A DNA stretch of 64,000 bases from Hyphomicrobiales bacterium (GTDB taxonomy: Bacteria; Pseudomonadota; Alphaproteobacteria; Rhizobiales; Xanthobacteraceae), in the NCBI GenBank assembly GCA_016185205.1, contig JACPOA010000018.1:59914-123913 (forward strand), given 5' to 3'. The position numbers and the translations under genes are program-made. This document shows positions 4,328 through 25,659 of this stretch, one piece after another; position 1 is the first letter of the stretch; every line of letters begins with the position of its first letter. The notes beneath the pieces are model-generated. The model made no database searches. It saw only the letters and a program-made list of their open reading frames with translations, and had not been told where the DNA came from.

Positions 4328-5560
4328 TCATATGGGTTTAAAATTGCGCAGGAAATCGAGAAGTATGCGAACGCATATATCCGCATCCTGAAGAGAAATC
4401 GCCTCCTTTGGATTATGGCTGATCCCGCCGGCGCAACGCACGAACAGCATGCCGATGGGACAGAGCTGCGCGATCGCCATTGCGTCGTGGCCGGCTCCTG
4501 ACGGCAGCAGCCGCGTCGCAAATCCCAATTGCTTAATCGCCCGCGAAAGGGCGTCGATCATGACCGGCGAACAGGCGGTCGCCGGCGCCTCGTGTGTGGT
4601 GGAGATCGATAGCTCAACTTGCCGGTCGGCGGCAATCTTGCGGGTGGAGCGCGTGATCTCTTCAGTTGCGGCGTCTCGCTGCGTGTCTTCGGGTGACCTG
4701 ACGTCAATCGTGAACTGAACGCTGCCCGGAATGACGTTCACCGCGCTCGGAAACACCTCCATCCGGCCGACGGTCGCCACTACACCCGGCAACGAATTTG
4801 CGACGCGCTCGACGGCGAGCACCATCTCCGCCGCCGCGGTGAGCGCGTCGCGCCGAAGCCGCATGGGGACGGTGCCCGCGTGTCCTGCTTCCCCAATCAC
4901 GGCCACCGCAAGCCGTCGGATGCCGTTGATGGCTGTCACCACCCCAACCGGCAAGTTGGCGGATTCGAGGACCGGCCCCTGTTCGATATGGACTTCAATG
5001 TATGCGTGAACCTCCTCGCGCGATTTAGCGGCCCTCGCGATCGCGGCGGGATCGCCGCCAAAAGCGATCAGCGCTTTGCGCAGACTGACGCCGTCGGCAT
5101 CACATACGTCGAGGATCGCTGGGTCAAAATAGCCGGCCAAGGCCCGAGACGAAGTGAGCGTCGTCGGAAAGCGTACGCCTTCCTCATCGCCGAAGGCGAC
5201 AACCTCGATGGCGAACGGCAATGTTTCGCGGTGCTTCGACAGTTCCTCGACGGCAACGAGGCCCGCGATGACACCGAGAGCGCCGTCGTAACGGCCGGCG
5301 TCGCGTACAGTATCGATATGTGAACCTAAAAGGAGGGCCGGCGCGCCGGGTATCGCGCTCTCATAACGCCCCACCACCGTTCCAAGCGCATCGATTGAAA
5401 CCGCGAGGCCTGCCTCACGCATCCAGCCAGCGAGTATCTCGGCGGCGGCTTTGTGAGCTGCCGACAAATAGAGCCGCGTCAATTTTCCCGGCTCGTCGGA
5501 ATGACGCGCCAGCGCATCCAGGCGTTCCATAACGCGACATCCCAGATGTTCGTCGCTCAC
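4328..5560 (-). CDS. M20-family Zn amidohydrolase, allantoate amidohydrolase / N-carbamoyl-L-amino-acid hydrolase type
   Basis: AmaB/AllC-like sequence ('LLLGSHIDTVRDAGRYDGALGV', 'FGDEEGVRF', 'GAGHDAM'). Its GTG start overlaps the puuE stop (GTGA). Confidence 0.75.
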   Translation of the reverse strand: MSDEHLGCRVMERLDALARHSDEPGKLTRLYLSAAHKAAAEILAGWMREAGLAVSIDALGTVVGRYESAIPGAPALLLGSHIDTVRDAGRYDGALGVIAGLVAVEELSKHRETLPFAIEVVAFGDEEGVRFPTTLTSSRALAGYFDPAILDVCDADGVSLRKALIAFGGDPAAIARAAKSREEVHAYIEVHIEQGPVLESANLPVGVVTAINGIRRLAVAVIGEAGHAGTVPMRLRRDALTAAAEMVLAVERVANSLPGVVATVGRMEVFPSAVNVIPGSVQFTIDVRSPEDTQRDAATEEITRSTRKIAADRQVELSISTTHEAPATACSPVMIDALSRAIKQLGFATRLLPSGAGHDAMAIAQLCPIGMLFVRCAGGISHNPKEAISLQDADICVRILLDFLRNFKPI

Positions 5561-6486
5561 GCGCCACCCTTCCGGGCTGGATGTTCAGCCTGCCAATGGC
5601 GCGCAATCTCTACGCGGCGCGCAATCCAAACATTCTCGTGGCCGAGCACATAGTCGAGGAAGCGCGCCAGCGCTGCCGCCCGACCGGGGCGGCCGACGAG
5701 CCGGCAATGCATGCCGACAGACATCATGCGCGGGCGTTCGGCACCTTCCGCATAGAGGACGTCGAAGGAATCTTTCAGATAGTTGAAGAATTGATCGCCG
5801 CAATTGAAGCCCTGTGCGCTGGCGAAGCGCATGTCGTTGGCATCGAGAGAGTACGGAATAATGAGATGGAATCCGCATGGGCCTTCCACCCAATAAGGCA
5901 AATCGTCGGCATAGCTGTCGGAGGAGTAGAGGAATTCGCCGTGTTCCATGACGAGATCGAGCGTGTGCTCCGACGACCGCCCGGTGTACCAGCCATGCGG
6001 GTGTTCGCCGGTCACTTCGGTATGAATGCGGATCGCCTCCAGCATGTGATGGCGTTCCGCATCGCGAGAAAAATCCTTATAATCGATCCATTTCAGTCCA
6101 TGGCTGGCAATTTCCCAGCCAGCCTCCTTCATGGCGGCAACTTGTTCGGGGCCGCGCATGAGCGCCGTTGCGACGCCATAAACGGTGAGCGGGCAATGGC
6201 GCTCGGTAAACATTCTCCAAATCCGCCAAAACCCTGCTCGCGCACCATATTCGTAGATCGATTCCATGCTCATATGACGCTGCCCCAACCATGGCTGCGC
6301 GCTGATGATCTCGGACAGAAATGCCTCTGACGCAGGATCGCCATGGAGAATGCAATTCTCTCCGCCCTCTTCGTAATTGAGCACGAATTGGACCGCGATC
6401 CGCGCCTCGCCCGGCCAGCGCGCGTGCGGCGGTGTTCGTCCATAGCCTTTCATGTCGCGGGGATAGGAGATCGTGGGGGGCATCAA
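5557..6486 (-). CDS. puuE: Allantoinase PuuE (polysaccharide-deacetylase family)
   Basis: 'YPRDMKGYGRTPPHARWPGEARIAVQFVLNYEEGGE' is the typical PuuE N-terminus. About 309 aa. Confidence 0.85.
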   Translation of the reverse strand: MMPPTISYPRDMKGYGRTPPHARWPGEARIAVQFVLNYEEGGENCILHGDPASEAFLSEIISAQPWLGQRHMSMESIYEYGARAGFWRIWRMFTERHCPLTVYGVATALMRGPEQVAAMKEAGWEIASHGLKWIDYKDFSRDAERHHMLEAIRIHTEVTGEHPHGWYTGRSSEHTLDLVMEHGEFLYSSDSYADDLPYWVEGPCGFHLIIPYSLDANDMRFASAQGFNCGDQFFNYLKDSFDVLYAEGAERPRMMSVGMHCRLVGRPGRAAALARFLDYVLGHENVWIARRVEIARHWQAEHPARKGGA

Positions 6487-6734
6487 TCGACTCCATTCAG
6501 GACGTCAGCAGATCACACCATCAGAAGCGCCACATAATTCAAAATTGAATCCTCTCCCCAACTCATGCAGTAACTAATCGTTCTGCGCCGCCGCATCGTG
6601 CCTTCGTCGGCAAGATGTATACAAGATTTCCAGGAAACCGGAAGCAATGCGTCGAGAAGCGCGACTGACACCTTAAATTTGAGCTACCGGGAGGCGCGAT
6701 TCTCGTCTACAAACGGTGCAGGCATGGAGGCCGT

Positions 6735-7265
6735 ATGAGGCCCGCCCGGAGACCCGGTCTGGAACTGGTCAATTCGGCAGACAGGAGTGAGTTCATCGCA
6801 CTGTTGGGCGGTGTCTTCGAGAATACTCCCTGGATTGCCGAAGCTGTCCTTGCGTGCCGGCCATTTCGAAGCATCGAAGAGTTGCATCGTGCGATGATGC
6901 AGTGCGTGCACGATGCACCGCCTTCTAGGCAACTCGCGCTGATCCGTACCCATCCTGAGCTTGCGGGCCGGGAGGCGGCCGCGGGTGTCTTGACATCGGA
7001 CTCAACGAGCGAACAAGATCGGCTCGGCTTTTTGGCATTGACCCGCAGCGAACTCGAAGAGATCTCCGAACTTAATCGCCGCTACCGCGATAAATTCGGT
7101 TTCCCCTGCATTGTCGCGCTGCGCCAGCATGAAACGCGAGAAAGCGTCATAGCAGAGATGACACGACGTATCGGCAATGGTGCCGGGACTGAAATCGCGA
7201 ATGCATTACAGCAGATTGGCCATATCACGCGCGGTCGGCTTGCTAAAATCATGGGCGGGACTTGA
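6735..7265 (+). CDS. uraD: 2-oxo-4-hydroxy-4-carboxy-5-ureidoimidazoline (OHCU) decarboxylase
   Basis: 'FIALLGGVFENTPWIAE...ALIRTHPELAG...LNRRYRDKFGFPCIVALR' are OHCU decarboxylase hallmarks. Confidence 0.85.
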   Translation: MRPARRPGLELVNSADRSEFIALLGGVFENTPWIAEAVLACRPFRSIEELHRAMMQCVHDAPPSRQLALIRTHPELAGREAAAGVLTSDSTSEQDRLGFLALTRSELEEISELNRRYRDKFGFPCIVALRQHETRESVIAEMTRRIGNGAGTEIANALQQIGHITRGRLAKIMGGT

Positions 7266-7266
7266 G

Positions 7267-7620
7267 ATGGGCAGGCTTTCGACCCACGTTCTCGACACGT
7301 CATGCGGACAGCCCGCCGTCGGAATGAAGATCGATCTATTTCGAATGGAAAACACGGGTTGGCAACGCCTCAAAACCGTTCTGACCGATACTGACGGGCG
7401 GGTGAGCGAACCGCTGCTGGCCGATGCCGATCTCGTCGCGGGCCGCTACCGGCTCGATTTCCACGTCGGCGCTTATTTCCGCGCGATGGGGGTCACTTTG
7501 CCCAATCCGTCATTCCTGGAAGAAGTGCCGATCCAGATCGGCATCGCCGATCCAAGCTTGCATTACCACGTGCCGTTACTTTGCTCGCCATGGAGCTATG
7601 CGACGTATCGGGGAAGTTGA
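7267..7620 (+). CDS. uraH: 5-hydroxyisourate hydrolase (transthyretin-like)
   Basis: 'MGRLSTHVLDT..G.PA.GM...' and the C-terminal 'YHVPLLCSPWSYATYRGS' signature. The start lies 1 nt after the uraD stop. Confidence 0.9.
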   Translation: MGRLSTHVLDTSCGQPAVGMKIDLFRMENTGWQRLKTVLTDTDGRVSEPLLADADLVAGRYRLDFHVGAYFRAMGVTLPNPSFLEEVPIQIGIADPSLHYHVPLLCSPWSYATYRGS

Positions 7621-7798
7621 AACGTGACCGTACACCCTACGGACCTGTTTTCGAGGCGGCACCTGATACCGACCTGACACTGTTGCTTGTGTTCTGTTGT
7701 GTCTTGCTTGCGGGCCATGACACGCTTAGCAATGAGGCAGCTGGGGACCTATTCCTCAAAGTAAATGCTAATCGCTATCAACAAGCCGGGGGGCTTCT

Positions 7799-9160
7799 AT
7801 GGCTAATCCTATTCATCCTGTCGACGAGCGCTTGCCGCTCACCCAACTTCTTCCACTCGGACTGCAGCATGTGCTCGTCATGTACGCGGGCGCCGTTGCG
7901 GTACCACTCATCATCGGACGTGCTCTAAAGCTGCCGCCGGAACAGATCGCAATTCTCGTCAATGCCGATCTGTTCGCCTGCGGCATCGTCACGCTCATAC
8001 AGTCGATCGGCATCGGGCCATTCGGAATTCGTCTGCCGATCATGATGGGCGTGACCTTTGCCTCCGTGGCGCCGATGCTGGCCATGGCCGGCAACCCCGC
8101 GCTCGGACTTGGCGGCATCTTTGGCTCGGTGATCGCCGCTGGTATTTTCGGCCTCATCGTTGCGCCATTCATGAGCGCAATGCTGCGCTTTTTCCCGCCG
8201 GTCGTCACCGGAACGATCATTGCCGTGATTGGAATTTCGTTGATGCGCATTGGCATCAACTGGGCGGCGGGGGCGGCGGCACCAAATCTTCCCGGCTATG
8301 GCGATCCGATCAACCTGCTCATCGCCGGCTTTGTGCTGATCGTCATTCTGCTCATCACGAAATTTGCCAAAGGCTTTGTCTCTAATATCGCGGTGCTGCT
8401 GGGCATCATCATCGGTTTCATCGTGGCGTGGCTGATCGGCAAAGTCAGTTTCACAGCGTTCAACAACGCCCCCTGGCTGGACATCATATATCCCTTCCAG
8501 CTCGCCAAACCGACGTTCGAGGTCTTTTCGATAATCACGATGTGTCTGGTCATGCTCGTGGTCATGGTCGAATCGACGGGTATGTTCATTGCGGTCGGCG
8601 AAATGACGGACCGGAAGGTAGAACAGCGCGATCTGACCCGCGGTCTATTGACCGACGGTTTGGGCACGCTCATCGGCGGCATCTTCAATACCTTCCCCTA
8701 TACCTCGTTCTCGCAGAATGTCGGACTGGTCGGCGTCACCGGCGTGAGGAGCCGCTGGGTTACCGCGGTGGGCGGGATCATCCTGTTGATTCTCGGCTTG
8801 ATTCCGAAGCTCGGCGCACTGGTCACCGCGGTTCCGCTGTTCGTTCTTGGCGGAGCGGGCATCGTCATGTTCGGGATGGTTATTGCGACCGGAATTCGTA
8901 TTCTGGCATCCGTCGATTACAAGACGAACCGCAACAACCTGTTCATCGTCGCAATCTCGATCGGATTCGGCATGATCCCTCTGGTGGCGCCAGCTTTCTT
9001 CTCGAAGCTGCCAAAGGAACTCGAGCCGCTGTTGAATTCCGGCATCGTGCTCGCCGCTGTCGCCGCCGTCTTGCTGAACGCCTATTACAACGGGGCCGGC
9101 TCAAAGAGTACGGGCAGCGCTGGAGCGGCCAGCGCGGCGAAGGCATCCGGGCACATCTGA
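7799..9160 (+). CDS. NCS2/NAT-family nucleobase:cation symporter (xanthine/urate permease type)
   Basis: About 13 TM segments. Contains the NAT signature 'SQNVGLVGVTGVRSR' (QNxGxxxxTG). Confidence 0.85.
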   Translation: MANPIHPVDERLPLTQLLPLGLQHVLVMYAGAVAVPLIIGRALKLPPEQIAILVNADLFACGIVTLIQSIGIGPFGIRLPIMMGVTFASVAPMLAMAGNPALGLGGIFGSVIAAGIFGLIVAPFMSAMLRFFPPVVTGTIIAVIGISLMRIGINWAAGAAAPNLPGYGDPINLLIAGFVLIVILLITKFAKGFVSNIAVLLGIIIGFIVAWLIGKVSFTAFNNAPWLDIIYPFQLAKPTFEVFSIITMCLVMLVVMVESTGMFIAVGEMTDRKVEQRDLTRGLLTDGLGTLIGGIFNTFPYTSFSQNVGLVGVTGVRSRWVTAVGGIILLILGLIPKLGALVTAVPLFVLGGAGIVMFGMVIATGIRILASVDYKTNRNNLFIVAISIGFGMIPLVAPAFFSKLPKELEPLLNSGIVLAAVAAVLLNAYYNGAGSKSTGSAGAASAAKASGHI

Positions 9161-9183
9161 GTACGCGCCGTTCCGAACTGCAG

Positions 9184-9221
9184 CCCGTCATGTCTTGCGT
9201 AAGCAAGGCATGACGGGTTTT
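9184..9221 (+). terminator. Rho-independent terminator after the permease
   Basis: 9-bp stem cccgtcatg (9184-9192) / catgacggg (9209-9217), followed by TTTT. Confidence 0.6.
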
Positions 9222-9282
9222 GTCAATTCGAAATTCGGAATCAAAACTGAGATTCTAACTTGGCAAGCTGCCAAGCTAAATT

Positions 9283-10482
9283 TCATTTTGCCGGCGCGCC
9301 GGCGGCGACCCAGGCAGCAAGCATCCGCCGCTCTTCCGCGGTCATTTCCGTAATATTGCCGGGCGGCATGGCGTTTGAGCGCACCGCGTTGCGCTCGATC
9401 AGCCTCGCATTGCGATGAATTGATTCATTGGTATCAAGAAGCACGCCTTTGGGGGCCGTTGCGATTGTCGCCCAGACCGACTCTTTTGCGTGGCACATGC
9501 TGCATCGGGACAGCACAATAGTTTCCACTTGTGCAAATTGCGGCGCTGGCGGTAGCGCACCGGTCGTCGTTTCGCGTGGTCCAGCGGCCGAGAGCCATGC
9601 GACAGCCGCCATGCCTCCGGCCGCAACGGCCCAGGTCCACCAAGGACTGCCTCTACCGGCGTGGCGCGAATTGAAGAAGTGACGAATGATCGGACCGAGC
9701 GCCAGGATGATGGCCACGATGACCCAATTGTACCGGGTGGCAAATAGCAGAGGATAATGGTTGCTGATCATGAGGAAGATGACCGGCAAGGTCAGATAGT
9801 TGTTGTGGACCGAGCGTTGCTTGCCGATCTTTACCCATTCGGGATTGGGTTCGCGTCCGGCGAGCAGGGCGGCGACGGTCTTCTTCTGGTTCGGAATGAT
9901 GATCGCAAAAACATTTGCCACCATCACTGTGCCAATGATGGCGCCGATTTGGTTGAACGCGCCGCGGCCGCTCAACATATGAGTAAATGCAAAAGTCAAA
10001 ATCACGATAAAGCAATAGCCAACCCAGGCGAGCGCCGCCTCATGCCTGCCTAACGGCGAACGACACAAGACCTCATAGATCAGCCAGGCGGAAATCAAGC
10101 TTCCCAAACTGAATGCGCCAGCCGCAAATGGCGTCAGATCCATCGAAGATTTGTCGATGAGGAAAAGCTCCGCATCGAGATAATAGACGACGACCAGCAA
10201 CGCAAACCCGGACAGCCACGTGGTGTACGCCTCCCACTTGAACCAAGTCAGTTCGTCAGGCATGCGCGCGGGCGCCAGCAAATATTTGACCATGTGATAG
10301 AAGCCGCCGCCATGCACCTGCCAAGCGTCGCCCTGCACGCCCGTGGGAAGTCCGTCACGATGCTTGAGACTGAGGTCGAGATGAATAAAATAAAATGAAC
10401 TGCCAATCCATGCCATGGCTGCGATCACATGCAGCCAGCGAAGCACAAGACTAAGCCATTCGGTCAATATCGGGTTAAACAT
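9283..10482 (-). CDS. puuD: Urate hydroxylase PuuD (membrane protein with C-terminal cytochrome c domain)
   Basis: 'LRWLHVIAAMAWIGSSFYFIHLD' N-terminus, multiple TM helices, C-terminal haem-c motif 'CSMCH'. Confidence 0.85.
   Translation of the reverse strand: MFNPILTEWLSLVLRWLHVIAAMAWIGSSFYFIHLDLSLKHRDGLPTGVQGDAWQVHGGGFYHMVKYLLAPARMPDELTWFKWEAYTTWLSGFALLVVVYYLDAELFLIDKSSMDLTPFAAGAFSLGSLISAWLIYEVLCRSPLGRHEAALAWVGYCFIVILTFAFTHMLSGRGAFNQIGAIIGTVMVANVFAIIIPNQKKTVAALLAGREPNPEWVKIGKQRSVHNNYLTLPVIFLMISNHYPLLFATRYNWVIVAIILALGPIIRHFFNSRHAGRGSPWWTWAVAAGGMAAVAWLSAAGPRETTTGALPPAPQFAQVETIVLSRCSMCHAKESVWATIATAPKGVLLDTNESIHRNARLIERNAVRSNAMPPGNITEMTAEERRMLAAWVAAGAPAK

Positions 10483-10737: not shown

Positions 10738-10750
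<13 letters not shown>
10553..10750 (-). CDS. Small 2x[4Fe-4S] ferredoxin (YfhL-like, 65 aa)
   Basis: '[12 protein letters not shown]' plus '[18 protein letters not shown]'. The start overlaps the upstream gene by 13 nt. Confidence 0.8.
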
Positions 10751-12831
<2,081 letters not shown>

Positions 12832-12855
12832 GTTCCCTCATCGACGCACGTGCAC

Positions 12856-14133
12856 TTAACGCTCGACCCCGGAGAAGATCAACGCAATGGAACCCTGGTC
12901 GCCGGGCAGGCTCATGGCGCCCGCGAGGCCCGCCGTGCCGGTCGCCGACGCCTGAATGCCGGTGTGCCTGCGCGCGAGATCGCGCGCGCAGGCGATTATG
13001 TCCTCGTCCACGACCACGGGCCGCCCGCCGCTCGTGCGCATGCCTTCGACCACCGCCCACCAGTCGTAGGTTTCGTCGTCGAGGATGCCGCTAGCGAGGC
13101 TTGCCGGCGTCGTCTCCCAGGGCCACATGAAACGGGAGCGATGGCGCGCCGCCTTGGCGAGATCGAGGCCGTCCAGTTTGTTCCAGGCGCGCGCCAGCGG
13201 CGCACAGCTCGCAGTCTGGACGGCGTTCACTTTCGGCATCTTTGCCAGCACGCCGCGCGCGCATGCGAGCGCGAACCCTTGCGTCAAAGCGCTCGCCAGC
13301 GCGCCGCCCCCCACCTGCACGAACAGCGAGTCGGGCACAACGCCGATGCGGCTAAATTCCTCCGCCATCTCGAAGGCGAGGGTGTGAGCGCCCTCGACCG
13401 CGAGGCCGTTTTCGGTTCCCTGTACGCCGAAGGGAATGGCGCCTTGCGCCACCGACTCGCGAAAGCGCAGGACGCACGGATCGCCCGCTTCGCCCGCGCG
13501 GCGTTCGCAGACGGTGATACGCGCCCCGAGATTTTGCAGTGACTGTTTTACGGCCGCGCCGGCATCGGGCGGGATGAACACGTCGAGCGGCCAGTCAGCG
13601 GCGCGCGCAATCACGGCCGCGGCGAGCGCGGCATTGCCGCAGGAGGCGATGGCGAGGCGGCGCTTGCGCAGCGCGTGGCCGGCTGGCAGTTTGGCAATTT
13701 CCAGCACGCGCAGATAGAGCATCACCCCCATAAGGTGGCGCGCCTTGTGCGAGCCGGACACGTTTGCGGTCTCGTCCTTGACCCAAAGCGAATCTTTTAG
13801 TCCCAGCGCAGCCGCCAGTCGTTTCTGCTCGATCATCGGCGTAAGGCGGAAGCCGCGGCCGTCGACGGTGACCAGCGCCGCATCCAGCTCCTCGACGATC
13901 TCGCTCCAGGCCGCGTCGGAAAGACTGGCCGCGCGCGCCAGCCGGTAGGGCGACAGCAGCGTCCGATAGCGCAGGAAGGGATTTTGTTCAGCGCCACTCG
14001 GGAATGCCTGGTCGGGCGGCTCCGCGATCAGCACATGATCGATGTCGTCGCCCGCGCCCGCCTGCGGGCAGCGGAACGGCAACGCGTGGGCGGCGTCGAC
14101 CGTCGTGCCGCAGCCATGACAGCGAAATTGCAT
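12856..14133 (-). CDS. PLP-dependent fold-type-II enzyme (threonine-synthase-like) with Cys-rich N-terminus
   Basis: 'VKDETANVSGSHKARH' (PLP lysine region), 'ASCGNAALAAA', N-terminal 'CHGCG...FRCP'. The ATG at 14133 is chosen; the upstream ORF extension is an Arg-rich artefact. Confidence 0.7.
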   Translation of the reverse strand: MQFRCHGCGTTVDAAHALPFRCPQAGAGDDIDHVLIAEPPDQAFPSGAEQNPFLRYRTLLSPYRLARAASLSDAAWSEIVEELDAALVTVDGRGFRLTPMIEQKRLAAALGLKDSLWVKDETANVSGSHKARHLMGVMLYLRVLEIAKLPAGHALRKRRLAIASCGNAALAAAVIARAADWPLDVFIPPDAGAAVKQSLQNLGARITVCERRAGEAGDPCVLRFRESVAQGAIPFGVQGTENGLAVEGAHTLAFEMAEEFSRIGVVPDSLFVQVGGGALASALTQGFALACARGVLAKMPKVNAVQTASCAPLARAWNKLDGLDLAKAARHRSRFMWPWETTPASLASGILDDETYDWWAVVEGMRTSGGRPVVVDEDIIACARDLARRHTGIQASATGTAGLAGAMSLPGDQGSIALIFSGVER

Positions 14134-14141
14134 CGTCACGC

Positions 14142-15647
14142 TCACAGACCGCGCTTCTTGTCGGCGCCGCTCTTCGCGTTGAACTCGGCGATCATGGCGT
14201 CCCAGGCAGGGACCAAGCCGAGCAGATCGTCCCAGAAGGACTGCTTGGCGCGCGCGGAAAATTCCTCGACCGACACGCCCTGCTGCTCCACCCAGGTGAA
14301 GTAGCCGAGGTTGAACACGCGTTGGCGATCGATCTGGGTCATTTCGATAAGACGATCGGTGCCGGCGCCGGCCAAAGCCCGGCCCCAGGTCTCGCCGGCC
14401 GCCACCGCATCGAACCGGTTGCTGAAATAGCGTACGACCGCCTTGTCGATCTCGCTGCCATACATGGCGGCGCCGTCGGTCGCGACGGTGAGAATGACGT
14501 CGTCGGGTCCGAGATCGAAGTATTTGGCGGTCTTGATCGCCGCCAGCATGTTGCACAGAGACGACAGGCCGAGATCGGCGAGTCGTGCGACCAGCTTGGC
14601 ATCGACGCCTCGGCGCTCGATCAGATATTTTCGTCCGGTCTCGGTATTGAACAGTACCAGCAGCGTGTCGGTCGACTGGTCGCTGACGCCGGTCACCACG
14701 TCGGTGTTCATCACGTTGTGGATATAGGGAACGTGTTTGTCGCCGATGCCCTGGATATTGTGTTCGCCGAAGCCGTTATAGAGCAGCGTCGGGCATTCGG
14801 CCGCCTCCACCGCGACGATGCGGGCCCCAAGCTTCTCCTTGAGATGATCGCCGGCGGCCAGCGTTCCGCTCGATCCCGAGGCAGAGACGTACGCCGCGAG
14901 CTTGGTGCCGGGGCGGTCTTGCGCGAGCGCGCCGAACAGCTTTTCCATCGCCGCGCCGGTGCAGACGCGGTGAATCAGATAATTCCCGAACTCGCAGAAC
15001 TGATTAAAGATGATATTGGTCGGCTCGCGATCGAGCGCGGCACAGGTGTCGTAGATTTCCTTGACGTTGCTTTCCGAGCCGGGCGTGCGGACGATGTCGG
15101 TCGGATCGGCCACCCATCGATCGAGCCAGTCGAATCGTTCGCGGCTCATGTTCTCCGGCAGCACGGCGGTGCCGCGGCAGCCGAGGATGCGCGAGATGGC
15201 GACGCCGCCGCGGCAGTAGTTGCCGGTCGAGGGCCACACCGCGCGGTCGCGCTCCGGATCGAATTGGCCGGTCACCAGCCGCGGCACCAGACAGCCATAG
15301 GCGGCCAGCACCTTATGGGCGGCGATCATCGGGAACCGGTTGCCCAATGCGAGCACGATGCGCGCCTTCACGCCGGTCAGTTCGGGCGGCAGTTCCACGT
15401 AATCGGGCACTGAGACCAGGTGCTTCCGATCGGCGCCATTGAACCAATGCACGCGGAACAAATTGAGGGCGTGCGCGCCATCGGGATCGACATCGGCGAG
15501 CCCGGCGCGGACGGCGGCGGGAATCGTCGAGGGATCTTTCAGCTGCGCGATCGTTGGCAGCACCACGCCGGCTTGGCCCAAGCGCGCGGCCGTGCGTTCG
15601 AGCACCGCCGCATCGACGACGGTGCGTTCAAGTCCGAGGCGCGCCAT
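14142..15647 (-). CDS. PLP-dependent fold-type-II enzyme (long cysteine-synthase/PALP-like, 501 aa)
   Basis: '[10 protein letters not shown]', '[11 protein letters not shown]', '[10 protein letters not shown]' resemble the CysK/CBS fold. A GGAAG Shine-Dalgarno precedes the ATG. Confidence 0.7.
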
Positions 15648-15668
15648 TGTTCTTCCTTTCGTCTTGCA

Positions 15669-16849
15669 TCACATCGCCGCCATGCGGTCCCATAGGCCGG
15701 CCGCATGTTTCTGCGCGCCGGCCGCGATCGCATCCATGTCGCCGCCGGCGAGGCGGCCGTTCTCTACCACGATGCGCCCGCCCACAATGACGTGGCGGAC
15801 GCGGCCGTTTTCCCGCACCACGACATCGCCAAGCGCGCCGGCGCTAAGCGGTTGGGGAGACGCGGCGAAGCGTTCGGCGATCAGCGCATGTCCCGTCGCC
15901 AGGCGGGGCGCCGCGCGATCGTCGCCATGAAGCTTGGCGAGGCGGAACAGCGCGACCTCTTCCTCCGCCATGTCGCCGTTCCAGCCATCGGTGCCGAGCG
16001 CGACGCGGTTTGAGGTGCGCAGGTTGTCGGCATAGCCAACACGGTTGCCTTCGTTCGAGCGTGGGTTCTGCACCAGCCAGCACGACAGCGCGTCCACCAT
16101 CTCCACCTGCGCGCGGCTCAAATGCACGCCATGCGCCAGGATCGAGCCGGGCACCAGCGCGCCCAGCGTCGCAAGCCGCTCCAGCGGGCCGTCGAAGCCG
16201 CGCGACCGCGCGTCATCGACGTCGGCTGAATCTTCCGCGACATGCACATGCAGGATGGTGGCAAGTTCGCGGGCGAGGGCGCCCGCCTCGCGTACGGTGT
16301 CGTCGGAGACGGTGAAGCTCGCGTGCAGGCCGACCATTCCGCGTATCAGTTGCGACGCAGGAACGCGGCGGCACTCGGCCAGGCCGCGCGCGGCCTCCTC
16401 ACGGCCGAAATTGCGCTCGGTCGCGCCGTAGCAAAGCAGCGCGCGCATGCCGAGCTGCTCGCAAACCTTGGCGAGGATGGCGAGCGATCCCTCGATCAGA
16501 TGCGGCGATTCGTGATGATCGATGAGCGCGGTGGTGCCGGCGAGCAGCGCGCGCGCGACATAGTCCAGAGCGGAGACGCGTAGCGTCTCGGCGTCGAGCG
16601 CACGGTCGAGCCGCCACCACACCCGCTCGAGGATTTGCACGAAATTTTCCGGCAGCGGGGAGGCTGGCGGCATGCCATAGCGTGCAAGCCCGCTGTAGAG
16701 GTGCGTATGCGCGCAAACCGCGCCGGCGGCGATCTCGCCATCGCCGCAGGCGAGCACGCGCGCGCCTTCGGGCGGCGACGCCGCAATCATCCCGTCGATC
16801 ACGGCGACGCGACGGCCGTGACGGTCGGGGCCGATCAGGAGCGGTTCGG

Positions 16850-16859
<10 letters not shown>
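15669..16859 (-). CDS. ssnA: SsnA-like amidohydrolase (chlorohydrolase/deaminase superfamily)
   Basis: 'CAHTHLYSGLAR...ILERVWWRLDRALD...LIDHHESPHLIEGSL...HVHVAED...NPRSNEGNRVGY...LGTDG' tracks E. coli SsnA as I recall it. Confidence 0.65.
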
Positions 16860-19492
<2,633 letters not shown>

Positions 19493-19507
19493 CTTGGGAT
19501 TTTCCCG

Positions 19508-20344
19508 TCAACGCTCGAGATCGCTGAATTCCTCATGCAACGACTCGATGCGCCGCAGACGCTCCTGCGCCGACGCGCCGAGCGCCAGCGCCACGCCGGA
19601 GCCGAGATAGTTCACGAGACTCATGGCAGCGACGTAGGAATCGAACAGGCGCGCCCCGCGGCTGTAACAGCGGAATACGATATGGGCCGATTTTCCGACC
19701 TTGCCGAGCGAGGAATCGCCCAGCAGGACGGTCCGCGCCTTGGCGGCGGCGGCGGCACGGAGGATTCGTCCCAGCACCGGCGGACGCCGGCGGAAGCCGA
19801 ACGCCAAAACGGCGTCACCCCGTCCCAGGTCGGAGAATTCTTCGGCCACGGTCTGGCCCGGGACCGGTAGCAGGTTCACCTGCGGGCGCACCTGCACCAG
19901 CAGCTCACGGGCGTAAAAGGCAAGCGGATAGCTGTTGCGGAATCCGACCACGGTTACGCGTTGCGCGCCGGCGAGGATTTTAACGGCGGCTTGCACATGG
20001 TCGGCAGGAATCGTCTCGATGGTACGCCTGAGGTAGGCAATGTCGTGCCCGAGATGCTCCGCCAATGTTCCGTCCAAATCCCGGGTATTTGACAGCTCGG
20101 CGAGCGGCGAGCCGTTATGATAGTGATTGCGCGCCTGCTGGCGCATTTCGTGGAAATCCGCATAGCCAAGACGGCGCACCAGCCGTGCGGCGGTCGCCTT
20201 CGACACCCCCGAGCGGGCTGCCAATTCGGTTGCGGAATAGGCCGCAAGGTCGCCCCGCATCTCAAGAATCAGCTCCGCCAGCTTCCGCTCGCCGAGCGGA
20301 AGCGCGTCATATGTCTCGCGGATTCGGTGAACCAGCGGGTCCAT
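19508..20344 (-). CDS. MurR/RpiR-family transcriptional regulator (HTH + SIS domain)
   Basis: 'LSATELAARSGVSKATAARLVRRLGYADFHEMR' HTH_6, then a SIS-like C-terminus. Confidence 0.8.
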   Translation of the reverse strand: MDPLVHRIRETYDALPLGERKLAELILEMRGDLAAYSATELAARSGVSKATAARLVRRLGYADFHEMRQQARNHYHNGSPLAELSNTRDLDGTLAEHLGHDIAYLRRTIETIPADHVQAAVKILAGAQRVTVVGFRNSYPLAFYARELLVQVRPQVNLLPVPGQTVAEEFSDLGRGDAVLAFGFRRRPPVLGRILRAAAAAKARTVLLGDSSLGKVGKSAHIVFRCYSRGARLFDSYVAAMSLVNYLGSGVALALGASAQERLRRIESLHEEFSDLER

Positions 20345-20353
20345 GGCAGCGAA

Positions 20354-20407
20354 GAAACATATGTTTCATAGATATGCAATAAGGAAATATACGTTTCATT
20401 CCTTATT
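20354..20407. promoter_or_regulatory. Candidate operator pair in the rpiR / M20-ygeW-arcC divergent region
   Basis: Perfect 14-bp palindrome GAAACATATGTTTC (20354-20367). Related GAAATATACGTTTC (20384-20397). 9-bp arms AATAAGGAA (20378-20386) / TTCCTTATT (20399-20407). AT-rich island in GC-rich DNA. Confidence 0.45.
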
Positions 20408-20468
20408 GACCCGCCATTTTGGCTCTGATTTCGTGCGCGCGCTTATTCGGCTTTTACTGGAGAAATTC

Positions 20469-22010
20469 ATGTCCAACCTCGATGCGCGCGTGGCCGAACT
20501 GGCCGCCAAATATCACCCCCTGGCGGTCGAAATACTGAAGGAGGCCATCCGCATCCCCGCCGACTATGTGGACCGTCCGGCCGACCAGGGCGGCGACCCT
20601 CGCTGCGGCACCTCCAACCACGAGTTCCCGCGGCTCGACTACCTGCGCAAGAAGATCATCGAGATCAAGGCGGTGCGCCGCCCCGAGGATGTCGACTTCG
20701 ACGCGTTCGGCAATCTCGTCTGGATGGTCGCCGATCCGGACGACGGCATCGCGTCCGACCAGAAGAAGGTTATCTACCTCGACGGCCACACCGATACGGT
20801 GAAGCCGCTGCGGCCGGTGTGGCTCGAGAAGACCAATGGCGGCGTTGACGTCTACAACGGCTTGATCGATCGGACCAAGATCGACAAGGCCATGCTCGAA
20901 AAGGAACTTGGCTGGGTGCCGCCGGAGTCCGAGTGGGAGCATCTGCTGTTTGGACGCGGCTCGGCCGACCAGTTGGGCGGCGTCATCGCCCAGATCGTCG
21001 CCTCGAAGATTCTTCTGGAACTGGCGCCGGAAGGTGCCCTGAAGGGCGTCATCGTGCGCTCCTACGCCACCGTGTGCGAGGAGGACAATGACGGCGCCGG
21101 CCCGATGTATGTCATGCGCAACGTCTTGCCGGGCGCCAAGGCCGAGCTCATTCCCGATGTCGTCATCCTCACCGACTCGACCGGCGACGCCAAGAAGGGC
21201 GCGCTCGGCATCTACCGCGGGCAGCGCGGCCGCATGCAGATCGAGGTGACGGTGACGGGCCGTTCCTCCCACGGCTCGATGCCGTGGGAAGGCCTCAACC
21301 CGCTCGAATTCGGCGGCGCCATCATCAAGGAGGCGGCCGAGAAATACGAGAAGCGCGAGGGCTTCCTCGACAACGCCTTCCTGGGTCACGGCACGCGCAC
21401 GGCGTCCTGGTCGAATCTCGATACGCCGAGCGACTGTGCGGTGCCGGCCCGTTTCGTGTTCCGCTTCGACCGTCGCCTCACTATCGGCGAGACGCCCGAG
21501 CAGGCGGTGGCCGATGTCGAGGGGCTTTCCTCGGTCGCCAAGGCACGTCAGGCGGGCCTCAAGGTCGAGGTCGGCGTGCCCACATACGGGGAGGCCAGCT
21601 GGAAAGGCTTCGTCCTCAACAATCCGCAGATCTATCTGGGCTGGGTCACGCCGGAGGAGCACCCCGCGATCCAGGCGGCGGTGACGGCCTACAAGGGCGT
21701 CGTCAGCCCGCACGTGAACGGCAAGAGCGGCACCGGCGGCGGCATCCCGAAGGAGCCGCGCGTCGATCGCTGGATCTTCTCGACCGACGGCGTGGGTTAC
21801 CCGGTGTCGAAGGACGACACCAGCATTCCGGTCGGCAAGGCCAAGCAGTGGGTGGTTTCCGGCGCTTACAAGCATCCGGCCATGTTCGGCTTCGCGCCCG
21901 GCATCGAGCAGAATACGCACAAGATCGCCGAGTGCGTCGATGTTCGCGAGGTGCGGCACGCCATCGCGTTCCTGGCGCGCTTCCCCAGCGTGTTCGCCGG
22001 CAGGGTCTGA
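20469..22010 (+). CDS. M20-family metallohydrolase in the YgeY position (513 aa)
   Basis: 'LDGHTDTV', 'FGRGSADQLGG', 'CEEDNDGAG'. GGAG lies 8 nt upstream of the ATG at 20469. Confidence 0.7.
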   Translation: MSNLDARVAELAAKYHPLAVEILKEAIRIPADYVDRPADQGGDPRCGTSNHEFPRLDYLRKKIIEIKAVRRPEDVDFDAFGNLVWMVADPDDGIASDQKKVIYLDGHTDTVKPLRPVWLEKTNGGVDVYNGLIDRTKIDKAMLEKELGWVPPESEWEHLLFGRGSADQLGGVIAQIVASKILLELAPEGALKGVIVRSYATVCEEDNDGAGPMYVMRNVLPGAKAELIPDVVILTDSTGDAKKGALGIYRGQRGRMQIEVTVTGRSSHGSMPWEGLNPLEFGGAIIKEAAEKYEKREGFLDNAFLGHGTRTASWSNLDTPSDCAVPARFVFRFDRRLTIGETPEQAVADVEGLSSVAKARQAGLKVEVGVPTYGEASWKGFVLNNPQIYLGWVTPEEHPAIQAAVTAYKGVVSPHVNGKSGTGGGIPKEPRVDRWIFSTDGVGYPVSKDDTSIPVGKAKQWVVSGAYKHPAMFGFAPGIEQNTHKIAECVDVREVRHAIAFLARFPSVFAGRV

Positions 22011-22043
22011 CCAGAACCTCACCCATCACGCAAGGAGCCATTC

Positions 22044-23237
22044 ATGCCCAGCGCCGCCATCGAGAAGCAGCTCGCCGCGTTTAACGCCCTGAAGACCGAT
22101 CTCTTCCACAAGGACTTCCTGCTGACGTGGGAGCATTCGACCGACGAAATCAAGGCCATCCTGACGTTGGCCGAGGCGCTCAAGCTCCTGCATCAGGAGG
22201 GTGTCTCGTGCCGCGCCTTCGACTCAGGGCTCGCCATCTCGATCTTCCGCGACAACTCCACCCGCACCCGCTTCTCCTTCGCCGCCGCGGCGAGCGCGCT
22301 CGGCTTCACGCTGTCGGATCTGGACGAGGAGAAGAGCCAGATTGCGCACGGCGAGACCGTGCGCGAGACCGCCAACATGATCAGCTTTCTCGCTGAGGTC
22401 ATCGGCATCCGCGACGACATGTTCCTGGGCGAGGGCAACAAATACATGCGCGAGGTCGGCGACGCCCTCACCGAAGGCAAGCAGCAAGGCGTGCTGCACC
22501 GCCGGCCCAGCATCATCAATCTTCAGTGCGACATCGATCACCCGACGCAATCGCTCGCTGACCTGGCCTGGCTGAAGAAGCACTTCGGCGGCATCGAGAA
22601 CCTGCGCGGCAAGAAACTCGCCATGACCTGGGCCTACAGCCCGAGCTACGGCAAGCCGCTCTCGGTCCCGCAGGGCGTCATCGGCCTCATGACCCGTTTC
22701 GGCATGGAGGTGAGCCTGGCGCACCCGGAAGGCTACGGGCTCATACCGGAGGTGATCGAGGTCGCCCGCAAGAACGCGGTGCAGAGCGGCGGCAAGTTCG
22801 AGGTGGTGAACAGTATGGAGCAGGCCTTCCAGGGCGCCCACATCGTCTATCCCAAGTCCTGGGCGCCGTATCACGTCATGCAGCGCCGCACCGAGCTGCT
22901 CAAGACGTCCGACAAGGACGGGCTCAAGGCGCTGGAGAAGGAGTGCCTGGCCAACAACGCCCGTTTCTCGAGTTGGGAGTGCGACCGGGCCAAGATGAAC
23001 CTGACCCACGACCGTTCTGCGCTCTACATGCACTGCCTGCCGGCCGACATCACAGACGTGAGCTGCAAGGCCGGCGAGGTCAGCGCCGAGGTCTTCGAGC
23101 AGTACCGCATTCCGACCTACCACGAAGCGAGCTACAAGCCGTTTGTCATTAGCGCCCTCATGTTCCTCACGCGTCTGCGGGATCCGGGCGCGAAGTTGGA
23201 GCAGATCATCCGCCGCGCCAAAGGCCTGAGTATCTGA
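22044..23237 (+). CDS. ygeW: YgeW-type (knotted) carbamoyltransferase
   Basis: 'KDFLLTWE', 'SIFRDNSTRTRFS', 'KSQIAHGETVRETANMISF', 'NLQCDIDHPTQSLADLAWL', 'MTWAYSPSYGKPLSVPQG', 'LYMHCLPAD'. Near-collinear with E. coli YgeW from memory. Confidence 0.85.
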   Translation: MPSAAIEKQLAAFNALKTDLFHKDFLLTWEHSTDEIKAILTLAEALKLLHQEGVSCRAFDSGLAISIFRDNSTRTRFSFAAAASALGFTLSDLDEEKSQIAHGETVRETANMISFLAEVIGIRDDMFLGEGNKYMREVGDALTEGKQQGVLHRRPSIINLQCDIDHPTQSLADLAWLKKHFGGIENLRGKKLAMTWAYSPSYGKPLSVPQGVIGLMTRFGMEVSLAHPEGYGLIPEVIEVARKNAVQSGGKFEVVNSMEQAFQGAHIVYPKSWAPYHVMQRRTELLKTSDKDGLKALEKECLANNARFSSWECDRAKMNLTHDRSALYMHCLPADITDVSCKAGEVSAEVFEQYRIPTYHEASYKPFVISALMFLTRLRDPGAKLEQIIRRAKGLSI

Positions 23238-23271
23238 CCATCGGCGTGGTCTCCCCTCGTCGGAGGCTGTC

Positions 23272-24216
23272 ATGAAGAAGACGGTGATCGTAGCCCTGGG
23301 TGGCAACCTGTTCGTCTCGGACGAGACGCATCAGTCGGTGCCCGACCAGTACCGCGCCGCGGAGCGGGCCTGCGCACATATCGTGCCGCTGCTGCGCGAT
23401 CCGGAGCTGCGTCTCGTCGTGACGCACGGGAACGGCCCGCAGGTCGGGTTCATCCTGCGCCGCTCCGAGCTGGCCGCCCTGGAGCTGCACCAGGTGCCGC
23501 TCGACGCCTGCGTTGCCGACACGCAGGGCGCGCTCGGCTACCAGATTGAGCGCGCGCTGCGCAACGAGCTTCGGCGCCACCGCCTGGCCAGGTCGCCCGC
23601 CGCCGTAGTGACACTCGTACTGGTCGACCGGGACGATCCCGCCTTCAGCCATCCCACCAAGCCCATCGGCGCCTTCCTCTCGAAGGAGCGCGCCGAGGAA
23701 CACCGGCAGAAGGACGGCTGGGACGTGGTGGAGGACGCCGGGCGCGGCTGGCGGCGTGTCGTGGCCTCTCCCACGCCTAAGGCCATCCTCGACCTCGAAG
23801 CGGTCCGCAGCCTGCTCGATGCCGGCTTTGTTGTTGTTGCCGCCGGCGGCGGCGGCATCGCCGTGGTCGAGGACCCGAGCGGCGACATCTTTGGCGCGTC
23901 CGCCGTCGTGGACAAGGACCTCGCCTCGAGCCTGCTCGCACGCCAGCTCGGCGCCGATGTGCTCGTCATCACGACGGACGTGGAAAAGGTCTGCATCGAC
24001 TATGGCAAGCCGGGGCAAAAGGCCCTCGACGCGATGACGGTGGCGGAGGCGAAGCGGTACATGGCGGAAGGGCACTTCAAGCCCGGCAGCATGCTGCCCA
24101 AGGTGCAGGCGATCATCGAGTTCCTGGGAGGCGGCGGCAAGCAGGCCATCATCACCGATCCCGAGCACATCGCCGCGGCGCTGGAAGGCAGCGGGGGCAC
24201 ACGCGTCACGCCGTGA
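23272..24216 (+). CDS. arcC: Carbamate kinase
   Basis: 'KKTVIVALGGN', 'VVTHGNGPQVG', 'VVAAGGGGI' are carbamate kinase signatures. 314 aa. Confidence 0.85.
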   Translation: MKKTVIVALGGNLFVSDETHQSVPDQYRAAERACAHIVPLLRDPELRLVVTHGNGPQVGFILRRSELAALELHQVPLDACVADTQGALGYQIERALRNELRRHRLARSPAAVVTLVLVDRDDPAFSHPTKPIGAFLSKERAEEHRQKDGWDVVEDAGRGWRRVVASPTPKAILDLEAVRSLLDAGFVVVAAGGGGIAVVEDPSGDIFGASAVVDKDLASSLLARQLGADVLVITTDVEKVCIDYGKPGQKALDAMTVAEAKRYMAEGHFKPGSMLPKVQAIIEFLGGGGKQAIITDPEHIAAALEGSGGTRVTP

Positions 24217-24255
24217 TCGGGCGAGCTGGGCACGGCGGCTGTTTGTTCGCCGGCG

Positions 24256-25659
24256 TTAGATTGTTTCCGCGTAGGCCGCACCGAATGGCTTGCGTGGCAG
24301 ATAACTGCCGGCGCCGCGCTCGGCACGCAAATCGCCGTCCGCCCAGACATGGCGTCCGCGTGCGAGCGTGTGGGTCACCACGCCCTTGATCTGCATTCCC
24401 TCCCACACCGAGAAGTCGGTGTTCTGATGCTGGGTTGCCGCGGAGAGGGTTTTCGTCCGCTCGGGATCGAGCACGATCAGGTCGGCGTCGGCGCCGACCT
24501 CCAGCGAACCCTTGCGCGGCCACAGATTGAACGCCTTGGCCGCATTCGCCGAGGTGAGGGCGACGAACCGCTCCGGCGTCAGGCGTCCGCTGTTGACTCC
24601 GAGATGCCACAGCACGTGCAGCCGCTCCTCGATCCCGCCGCAACCATTGGGAATCTTGGTGAAGTCGTTAAGGCCGAGGCGCTTCTGCGCTTTGGTGAAA
24701 CAGCAGTGATCGGTACCCGTGGTGCTGAGCGTGCCGGCCTCCACCGCCCGCCAGATCGCCTCCTGATGGCCCTTCGGCCGGTAGGGTGGGCTCATCACAT
24801 GGCCGGCGGCGATGTCGAAATTTTCCGCGCGGTAGACCGTGTCGTCGATGGCGAGAAATCCCGGCAAGGTCTCGCCGATGACTTTCACGCCGCGCCGCCT
24901 GGCTTGCCCGATGGCATCCGCGGCCTCAGCCGCCGAGACGTGCACCACGTAGAGCGGCACGTCGACAATCTCCGCCATGGTGATGGCGCGCAGCGTCGCC
25001 TCGCCCTCGCATTGCGAGGGGCGCGACAGCGCATGACCGAGCGGCGAGGTGATCCCGTCGGCCAACACTTTCTGCTGCAGATAGGCGATCAGTTCTCCGT
25101 TCTCGGCGTGCACCTGCACCAGCGCTCCGAGCTCGCGGCAGCGGCGAAAGCCGGCGATGAGGTCCTCGTCGGGCAGCATCAGGCGGCCCTTGTAGGCGAG
25201 AAAGAACTTGAAGCTGGCGATGCCGTGGTCGTTGACCAGGCTCGCCATCGCCGTGGAGAAAGCTTCGCTCCACCACGACACGGTCATGTGGAAGCCGTAG
25301 TCCACCGTCGACTTGGCCGCCCGGTCCTGCCAGATCGTCAGCGCCTCCAATGGCGATTGCCCCGGTTCGGGGCCGACGAAATCGAGGATCGTGGTGGTCC
25401 CGCCCGCCGCCGCCGCCGCCGTGCCGGTGAAGAAATCATCCGCCATGACGGTTCCCATCATCGGCAATTGCATGTGGGTGTGCGGGTCGATCCCGCCGGG
25501 CATCACGTAGCAGCCGCCGGCATCGATGACCTCAGTGCCGGCCGGCGCCGCGATCGCGTCGCCGATGGCGACGATGCGCCCGTCATGGGTGAGCATGTCG
25601 GCGCGCCGACGCCCCCGTTCCGTCACGACCGTGCCGCCTCGGATCAAATTCATCGTCAT
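24256..25659 (-). CDS. Dihydropyrimidinase / D-hydantoinase (HyuA-type cyclic amidohydrolase)
   Basis: 'VMPGGIDPHTHMQLP', 'GGTTTILDF', 'FKFFLAYKG', 'VHAENGE', 'GTDHC'. 467 aa. Confidence 0.85.
   Translation of the reverse strand: MTMNLIRGGTVVTERGRRRADMLTHDGRIVAIGDAIAAPAGTEVIDAGGCYVMPGGIDPHTHMQLPMMGTVMADDFFTGTAAAAAGGTTTILDFVGPEPGQSPLEALTIWQDRAAKSTVDYGFHMTVSWWSEAFSTAMASLVNDHGIASFKFFLAYKGRLMLPDEDLIAGFRRCRELGALVQVHAENGELIAYLQQKVLADGITSPLGHALSRPSQCEGEATLRAITMAEIVDVPLYVVHVSAAEAADAIGQARRRGVKVIGETLPGFLAIDDTVYRAENFDIAAGHVMSPPYRPKGHQEAIWRAVEAGTLSTTGTDHCCFTKAQKRLGLNDFTKIPNGCGGIEERLHVLWHLGVNSGRLTPERFVALTSANAAKAFNLWPRKGSLEVGADADLIVLDPERTKTLSAATQHQNTDFSVWEGMQIKGVVTHTLARGRHVWADGDLRAERGAGSYLPRKPFGAAYAETI

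Follow-up and report, generated by a model that had tools for sequence, protein, structure and literature searches.

Two adjacent genes within a 64,000-nucleotide stretch of bacterial DNA (Hyphomicrobiales bacterium, assembly GCA_016185205.1, contig JACPOA010000018.1, positions 59,914 to 123,913 of the forward strand; hereafter, the window) encode two different pyridoxal phosphate (PLP) enzymes of fold type II, which are referred to here as PLP1 and PLP2. The genes lie in a cluster that is identified by profile and identity scores as a homologue of the enteric ygeW-xdhD island and as a variant of the reductive urate (2,8-dioxopurine) pathway. They occupy the slot that is held in the enteric island by YgeX (DpaL), the diaminopropionate ammonia-lyase (DAPAL). 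It is proposed, with a probability of roughly 0.55, that PLP1 and PLP2 form a conserved module that replaces YgeX and converts 2,3-diaminopropionate (DAP) to pyruvate and two molecules of ammonia, a substrate and a net reaction that we infer. The source is an uncultured soil Xanthobacteraceae-like organism, represented by a metagenome-assembled genome (MAG) that is 96% complete.

The reductive urate pathway was elucidated only in 2025, and its engineering into probiotics against gout is under way; in its published form, it ends with YgeX. In two preprints, in which the pathway of the enteric and clostridial clusters was reconstituted, urate is first reduced to 2,8-dioxopurine by XdhD, after which reduction and opening of the pyrimidine ring by YgfK and SsnA yield ureidomethyl-hydantoin, HyuA opens the hydantoin to 2,3-diureidopropionate, YgeW (or UacY) and YgeY take off both ureido groups to leave DAP, and YgeX converts DAP to pyruvate and ammonia (10.1101/2025.05.19.654654; 10.1101/2025.04.24.650524). 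The window holds a counterpart for each of these steps, YgeX alone excepted. Genes for XdhD, YgfK, SsnA, HyuA, YgeW, carbamate kinase, and YgeY all lie within 10738-25659; XdhD, YgeW, carbamate kinase, and HyuA score above their profile cut-offs, and SsnA, YgeY, and YgfK (its N-terminal half only) are recognisable below them. An initial annotation, made from the letters of the DNA and their open reading frames (ORFs), had described this region as a purine-ring degradation operon and had contrasted it with an enteric island carrying one PLP enzyme. Both statements are supported: in the annotated E. coli K-12 genome, ygeX is the single PLP enzyme gene of the island and lies between ygeW and ygeY.

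Sequence, fold, and family of the two proteins

The two adjacent beta-family genes of 501 and 425 aa that the initial annotation had pointed out were confirmed (Table 1). Ahead of its real start, the PLP2 reading frame remains open for another 423 nt, and the 566-aa ORF from a GTG at 14556 (12856-14556, minus strand) is a high-GC overprint of the 3' end of PLP1. Both proteins are recognised as fold-type II PLP enzymes by a match to Pfam PALP (PF00291; 41 bits for PLP1 and 137 for PLP2 at a gathering cut-off of 35), a Schiff-base lysine, and a glycine-rich phosphate loop. In an alignment of 25 family members, the motifs of PLP1 are K112 (AHK), which is likely the PLP lysine, a CysK-like S140-T-G-N loop, N215-Q-F, the phosphate loop G258-S-x-G-T, and S362. 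PLP1 extends about 180 residues beyond the CysK/CBS core, with approximately 85 extra residues at the N-terminus and 100 at the C-terminus, which are helical. The alignment of 21 PLP2 family members shows the PLP lysine K130 (GSHK), an invariant S164-C165-G-N, a G275-G-G loop, a family-specific ILDDETYDW motif, and the invariant residues C5, C8, C22, and H33, which form a probable zinc ribbon. The motif that the initial annotation had quoted, 'VKDETANVSGSHKARH', is found at residues 118-133 of PLP2, and the Cys-rich 'CHGCG...FRCP' at residues 5-23. The PLP lysine, the substrate-carboxylate loop, and the phosphate loop are kept in both proteins, which appear to retain what active fold-type II enzymes need.

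AlphaFold (AF2) models were obtained with high confidence values (predicted local distance difference test, pLDDT, of 94.1 for PLP1 and 89.5 for PLP2). Foldseek ranked CysK/CBS structures first for the PLP1 model, with a template modelling (TM) score to the target of about 0.8, and the ThrC structure 2zsj first for the PLP2 model (E 1e-18), followed by serine racemases, threonine deaminases, and DAPAL. Sequence searches of the PDB agree in that PLP1 matches CysK/CBS only, and PLP2 matches ThrC and then serine dehydratases and racemases.

Neither protein is a DAPAL orthologue, as judged from hidden Markov model (HMM) scores, tree position, and the site of the catalytic Asp120. On the DAPAL models NF006058 and TIGR03528, PLP2 reaches 23.8 bits versus 276 and 21.4 bits versus 532, respectively, PLP1 matches neither, and true DAPALs score 460–545 bits. 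E. coli YgeX shares 24% identity with PLP2 over 206 aa and gives no match with PLP1. Lys77 and Asp120 of YgeX, the latter within TTDGNHG, have been put forward as candidate catalytic residues (PMC4000059). In a structure-aware alignment, the loop in question reads T-D-G-N-H in the Pleomorphomonas DAPAL, T/N-G-N in ThrC, S/A-G-N-H in dehydratases, and S-C-G-N in PLP2; the Asp120 position is held by the invariant Cys165 in PLP2 and by Thr141 in PLP1. It had been noticed from the outset that neither protein shows the DAPAL motif, and phylogenetic placement, which had been suggested as a check, leads to the same result. In a maximum-likelihood tree (IQ-TREE, 36 rows), the PLP1 family forms its own clade (SH-like approximate likelihood ratio test, SH-aLRT, 99; stem 1.0), sister to CysK (98), and the PLP2 family forms another (SH-aLRT 100; stem 1.36), sister to ThrC (92). 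DAPAL stands apart from both, with the dehydratases.

Profiles and gene content show that the pair does not represent the biosynthetic ThrC or CysK of this genome either. PLP1 scores 66 bits versus a cut-off of 351 on the CysK models (TIGR01139/TIGR01136), PLP2 scores 102 versus 303 on the ThrC models (TIGR00260/NF006050; zinc-ribbon ThrC, PRK08197), and both fall far below every curated NCBIfam cut-off. The genome contains ten PALP-fold genes, PLP1 and PLP2 included. The other eight were assigned with NCBIfam to a true ThrC (692 bits; contig C5:79904-81220), two CysK (369 and 528 bits), TrpB, a TrpB-like protein, threonine ammonia-lyase (IlvA), a serine/threonine-dehydratase-like protein, and a PLP1 paralogue. 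No DAPAL above the cut-off was found in the genome, the best match reaching 69.8 versus 276 bits. Ten distant members of the PLP1 family did not match any named NCBIfam family, and the protein atlas offered generic names only.

Conservation of the pair and the distribution of DAPAL

PLP1 homologues at 77–97% identity are abundant in metagenomes, and the family comprises 380 clusters at 50% identity (HMMER, 1.8 billion representatives, E up to 1e-30). A scan of 185,579 species genomes yielded 80 loci at 66% identity or higher. The carriers are Xanthobacteraceae, Rhodoplanes, Pleomorphomonas, Telmatospirillum, Astrobacterium, Propionivibrio, Accumulibacter, Sterolibacterium, Anaeromyxobacteraceae, and Acidobacteriota, so that the pair-bearing loci span Alpha- and Betaproteobacteria, Myxococcota, and Acidobacteriota. 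Of the 72 loci long enough to include it, 71 have PLP2 immediately downstream of PLP1, mostly within 8–50 nt (median of about 26 nt between the aligned ends). SsnA is encoded directly upstream of PLP1 on the same strand in 35/68 loci, and 43 of 50 pair-bearing genomes contain an SsnA homologue somewhere.

The commonest gene order is XdhD-SsnA-PLP1-PLP2, with or without the N-terminal half of YgfK behind it, together with either YgeY/YgeW/carbamate kinase/HyuA or a UacY-like Amidohydro_3 protein and an M20 hydrolase. Other contexts include RpiR with a TRAP transporter, M20, and CN-hydrolase (Accumulibacter, Propionivibrio); RpiR followed by PLP1-PLP2-YgeY-like-YgeW (Rhodospirillales); a PnrA-type ABC system with M20, CN-hydrolase, and a conventional XDH (Rhodocyclaceae); NMT1-type binding proteins with GGT and M20; and a stand-alone two-gene unit in Pleomorphomonas, whose neighbours (beta-eliminating lyase, DeoR, TIM, dihydroxyacetone kinase, ADH, MCP) offer no coherent functional hint. 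Even at loci without an adjacent SsnA, decarbamoylating enzymes are encoded beside the pair (YgeY and YgeW, or M20 and CN-hydrolase with TRAP and RpiR), and two decarbamoylases are kept in each cluster variant: YgeW with YgeY, the UacY-like protein with M20, or M20 with CN-hydrolase. A divergent module was also met in a distant low-GC alphaproteobacterial locus (L123:3486-10556, GC 37%), with a PLP1-like protein at 44% identity, a 513-aa PLP2-like protein at 29%, an SsnA-like amidohydrolase at 33%, a MocA/MobB-like protein, and a ClC channel. Co-occurrence with the purine genes had been named as a further check, and the pair is indeed kept beside ssnA/xdhD/ygfK across several phyla. With this conservation and the lack of DAPAL orthology, neither of the two outcomes that were to speak against the initial annotation, a bona fide YgeX in the pair or generic biosynthesis genes not conserved next to the purine genes, is what was found.

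Gene fusions point in the same direction as gene order. The proteins P0400 and P0401, from two different lineages and 48% identical over their full length, are fusions of about 910 aa in which a ThrC-like domain is joined to a PLP1-like domain. The ThrC-like domain scores above the TIGR00260 cut-off, and the domain order is opposite to the gene order found here. Judged from their sequences, these two look real, the only ones among the candidates to do so. P0398, P0399, and P0405, which were considered as PLP1-PLP2 fusions, have Arg/Pro-rich out-of-frame junctions that match the upstream extension of the PLP2 frame described above, and were rejected as frameshift artefacts; a putative SsnA-PLP1 fusion (P0397) is doubtful, with a junk-like linker of 95 aa. 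Taken together, the real fusions, the near-invariant adjacency, and the short spacers support the idea that PLP1 and PLP2 work as one unit.

The distribution of DAPAL was compared with that of the pair. Among 31 genomes with the pair beside SsnA/XdhD, the present one included, DAPAL above the cut-off is absent from 29, the two exceptions being Rhodoplanes serenus and an Azospirillaceae MAG. Where the pair is located elsewhere, DAPAL is present in 11 of 25 genomes, mostly Pleomorphomonas. The pair thus seems to stand in for YgeX in most purine clusters and is not strictly exclusive with DAPAL.

The PLP1 family also occurs without PLP2. The paralogue in this genome (L014:9416-10912, minus strand, within contig C57:236000-256000) is 60% identical to PLP1, has no PLP2 partner, and is encoded in an operon with CoA-transferase alpha/beta subunits and a luciferase-like enzyme, which is probably F420-dependent. 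The operon is flanked by genes for FbiC/CofD/CofE/F420-NADP reductase, an M20 hydrolase, a Mo-hydroxylase 2Fe-2S/CoxG subunit, and an Fe-S L-serine dehydratase, and its four-gene core was found again in four other genomes. The locus may represent another, F420-linked N-heterocycle pathway, and it indicates that the PLP1 family uses different partners and is not bound to PLP2 in all settings. Two solitary PLP1-like genes, one directly after an arginase-family gene (L120:9092-11638) and one between an OCD/mu-crystallin gene and M20, M24, and proline-racemase-family genes (L122:7154-13857), hint at other substrates for the family.

The gene cluster in the window

The window has a GC content of 57–69%. 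On its minus strand, the genes are tightly packed in the order RpiR-XdhD-SsnA-PLP1-PLP2-YgfK(N-half)-PuuD, and the YgeY-like hydrolase, YgeW, and carbamate kinase genes diverge from the regulator on the plus strand (Table 1). The start of ssnA overlaps the end of the XdhD gene by 10 nt, and the following gaps measure 21 nt (SsnA-PLP1), 8 nt (PLP1-PLP2), and 24 nt (PLP2-YgfK); the 21-nt gap is too short for a gene of the size of OrtA, the small partner that would be expected upstream of PLP1 if PLP1 were related to OrtB, the PLP beta subunit of 2-amino-4-ketopentanoate thiolase. No terminator-like sites were found on the minus strand from 20344 to 10500, which is weak evidence for one transcription unit. 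By analogy with the published enzymes, the XdhD-type protein would act in the step from urate to 2,8-dioxopurine, and the YgeY-like M20 protein in 3-ureido cleavage.

Table 1. Features of the reductive urate cluster in the window (bit scores are given with the cut-off of the profile)
Feature	Position	Strand	Length, score, and identity
PLP1, divergent CysK/CBS-fold PLP enzyme	14142-15647	-	501 aa
PLP2, ThrC-like PLP enzyme	12856-14133	-	425 aa; ATG at 14133
SsnA-like amidohydrolase (ring-opening step)	15669-16859	-	NF005540 273 bits vs 444; 35% identity to E. coli SsnA
XdhD-type [2Fe-2S]-molybdopterin hydroxylase, without FAD subunit	16850-19492	-	TIGR03311 904 bits vs 830; 26% identity to E. 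coli XdhD
YgfK N-terminal half, DHOD-like barrel and 4Fe-4S motifs	10738-12831	-	TIGR03315 positions 4-411 of 1012; 41% identity to E. coli YgfK residues 5-395
RpiR/MurR-family regulator, head of minus-strand array	19508-20344	-	profile matches; kept upstream of xdhD in related loci
YgeY-like M20 hydrolase	20343-22010	+	555 aa as listed, true start uncertain; NF009555 182 bits vs 321; 33% identity to E. coli YgeY
YgeW knotted carbamoyltransferase	22044-23237	+	NF005538 662 bits vs 453; 66% identity to E. coli YgeW
Carbamate kinase (YqeA equivalent)	23272-24216	+	NF009007 398 bits vs 266; 45% identity to E. coli YqeA
D-hydantoinase/dihydropyrimidinase (HyuA equivalent)	24256-25659	-	TIGR02033 583 bits vs 393; 40% identity to E. 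coli HyuA
PuuD membrane urate hydroxylase, end of minus-strand array	9283-10482	-

Two further features of the cluster concern its redox supply and its neighbourhood. YgfK is without its GltD-like NAD(P)H/FAD half, a truncation shared by most related loci, and no YgfM-like FAD subunit for XdhD was found in the window. For this reason, the genes give no indication of what supplies electrons to the two reductive steps. Aerobic urate genes adjoin the reductive cluster (window 4328-10482), namely PuuD, an NCS2 permease (7799-9160), a PuuE-like polysaccharide-deacetylase-family protein (5557-6486), and an M20 amidohydrolase (4328-5560). Both routes thus seem to be present in a single organism.

Proposed role, rival explanations, and known systems

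DAP, an alpha-amino acid, carries a leaving group at its beta position, and we know of no means of disposing of it other than PLP chemistry. The only PLP enzymes of the operon are PLP1 and PLP2, which favours the pair for the conversion of DAP to pyruvate and two molecules of ammonia. Since all the upstream enzymes are encoded in the cluster, DAP is the expected product by analogy, and the two decarbamoylases in every variant argue for fully decarbamoylated DAP rather than albizziin as the substrate. The earlier suggestion of a different handling of the C3 end product is thereby supported, and it can be narrowed to the DAP-consuming step, as DAP was established as the pathway end product in the 2025 preprints.

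The proposed sequence of events is as follows. XdhD, YgfK(N), SsnA, HyuA, YgeW with carbamate kinase, and YgeY would deliver DAP, probably as the D-isomer, and the pair would then take it to pyruvate and two ammonia. PLP2 might handle the D-isomer by racemisation or D-specific proton abstraction via Lys130/Cys165, and PLP1 might form aminoacrylate by beta-elimination of ammonia from the L-isomer. This division of labour is more speculative than the net reaction. It is suggested by the invariant Cys165 at the DAPAL Asp120 position, on account of which PLP2 may deal with the D-isomer, and by the CysK-type active site of PLP1, which may make aminoacrylate. E. coli YgeX is reportedly equally active on both DAP isomers. 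The upstream enzyme types are D-selective, with a D-hydantoinase in this cluster, and UacY of the clostridial variant resembles D-aminoacylases (Li et al. 2025).

Several observations weigh against the replacement of YgeX by the pair. YgeX carries out the reaction alone, whereas the pair would use two enzymes. Cys165 is not kept in the ThrC-like domain of the fusions P0400 and P0401, which reads S-T-G-N there. The pair and a bona fide DAPAL occur together in 13 of 56 pair-bearing genomes. In Rhodospirillales MAG51 (L104:5761-14136), one co-directional array runs PLP1-PLP2-247-aa ORF-DAPAL (545 bits)-M20-carbamate kinase-YgeW. In Pleomorphomonas diazotrophica (L100:5985-16224), DAPAL accompanies RpiR, M20, the YgfK N-terminal half, XdhD, and SsnA, and the pair lies elsewhere. 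Since MAGs make up many of the genomes, the absence of DAPAL is no proof. Given that the two systems sometimes coexist, they are not strictly equivalent, and the pair may do something that DAPAL does not. The Pleomorphomonas diazotrophica locus is also a third layout of the reductive urate cluster, in which a truncated YgfK is combined with a classical YgeX-type lyase. The idea that coexisting DAPALs lack the D-specific Asp was not supported, as the one that was aligned (Pleomorphomonas) keeps T-D-G-N-H.

A bolder version of the role, held here as a minority view, is that of an obligate PLP1-PLP2 hetero-complex with chemistry not seen in DAPAL. Such a complex might channel a Cys165/Lys130 two-base racemisation of D-DAP into a CysK-type aminoacrylate site, or might convert DAP and other beta-substituted alanines to serine or cysteine. 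Either way, it would represent a general module by which bacteria catabolise beta-substituted alanines, recruited by the purine pathway.

It is also possible, although unlikely, that the pair serves salvage. Here, beta-replacement on DAP, with ammonia leaving and water or sulfide entering, would give serine or cysteine, to be deaminated further by DAPAL or a serine dehydratase. The CysK beta-replacement motifs are kept in PLP1, ThrC chemistry is known from the family to end in water addition to an aminoacrylate-type intermediate, and the pair shares an array with DAPAL in L104. Four genes downstream of the PLP1 paralogue of this genome, at a locus that lacks PLP2, an Fe-S L-serine dehydratase is encoded, but this neighbour is not kept at other paralogue loci. 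In 29 of the 31 SsnA-linked genomes there is no DAPAL, and carbon would have to exit via serine anyway.

The next explanation, which we consider improbable, holds that only one protein is a DAP lyase and that the other is a helper (a racemase, an enamine/imine-handling partner, or a regulatory subunit) or was co-inherited for another pathway. That YgeX needs no partner fits this view, as do the PLP1-family paralogues without PLP2, such as the conserved CoA-transferase operon. Nevertheless, the adjacency and short spacers across the loci, the real ThrC-like/PLP1-like fusions, and the full catalytic motifs in both proteins speak against it.

Similarly doubtful is an action of the pair one step earlier, on 2-amino-3-ureidopropionate (albizziin), whose ureido group would be removed by beta-elimination or replacement so that no free DAP is formed. 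CysK-fold enzymes do take ureido-bearing beta-substituents, the structural matches to PLP1 include O-ureidoserine synthase (3x44), and the YgeY-like M20 protein is divergent, with the low score given in Table 1 and an identity of just 28–29% in the Rhodospirillales loci. However, each variant keeps two decarbamoylating enzymes, which would be superfluous were the 3-ureido group taken off by the pair.

Finally, the view that the genes are ordinary amino-acid biosynthesis paralogues with no purine role, as the public labels 'threonine synthase' and 'cysteine synthase A' imply, is effectively refuted by scores 3- to 5-fold under the curated cut-offs, the true ThrC and CysK copies elsewhere in the genome, the separate long-branch clades, and the conserved ssnA synteny.

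Full-text searches of a limited collection of papers for the pathway genes and metabolites retrieved pathway papers, reviews, and unrelated matches only, none of them describing the pair. In the similarity network of Li et al. (2025), any PF00291 neighbour was counted as YgeX, so the pair was not distinguished. In a large share of environmental carriers, the pathway probably ends with PLP1-PLP2 instead of YgeX. As the pair sits in the YgeX slot and is mislabelled in databases, pathway completion is misjudged in surveys that seek ygeX or treat every PF00291 neighbour as YgeX. Rarely are two different fold-type II PLP enzymes inherited as a single unit, as they are here, and in some lineages even fused. 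Once defined, its reaction would give a function to the PLP1 family and to its partner family.

The pair can be compared with four known systems. With YgeX/DpaL (EC 4.3.1.15), it shares fold type II, the cluster slot by ygeW/ygeY/ssnA-type genes, and presumably the substrate and net products; it differs in having two proteins instead of one, with no orthology, and in replacing T-D-G-N-H by S-C-G-N-A in PLP2 and S-T-G-N-Y in PLP1. PLP2 resembles the zinc-ribbon threonine synthases in its fold, N-terminal Cys-rich ribbon, GS-x-K lysine motif, and sister position in the tree, and departs from them in its own SCGN and ILDDETYDW motifs, its catabolic context, and its long separate branch (1.36). 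The predicted structure of PLP1 superposes on the CysK/CBS core, with the lysine, the S/T-G-N loop, the NQF motif, and the glycine loop in common, whereas its helical extensions, its separate clade, and its partner (a ThrC-like protein, or CoA-transferase for the paralogue) set it apart. A further parallel is the urate-cluster variant of C. difficile (UacX, UacY; Li et al. 2025), which illustrates how pathway steps are replaced by non-orthologous enzymes across lineages; some of the PLP-pair loci are like it in carrying the UacY-like Amidohydro_3 protein and M20 in place of YgeW/YgeY.

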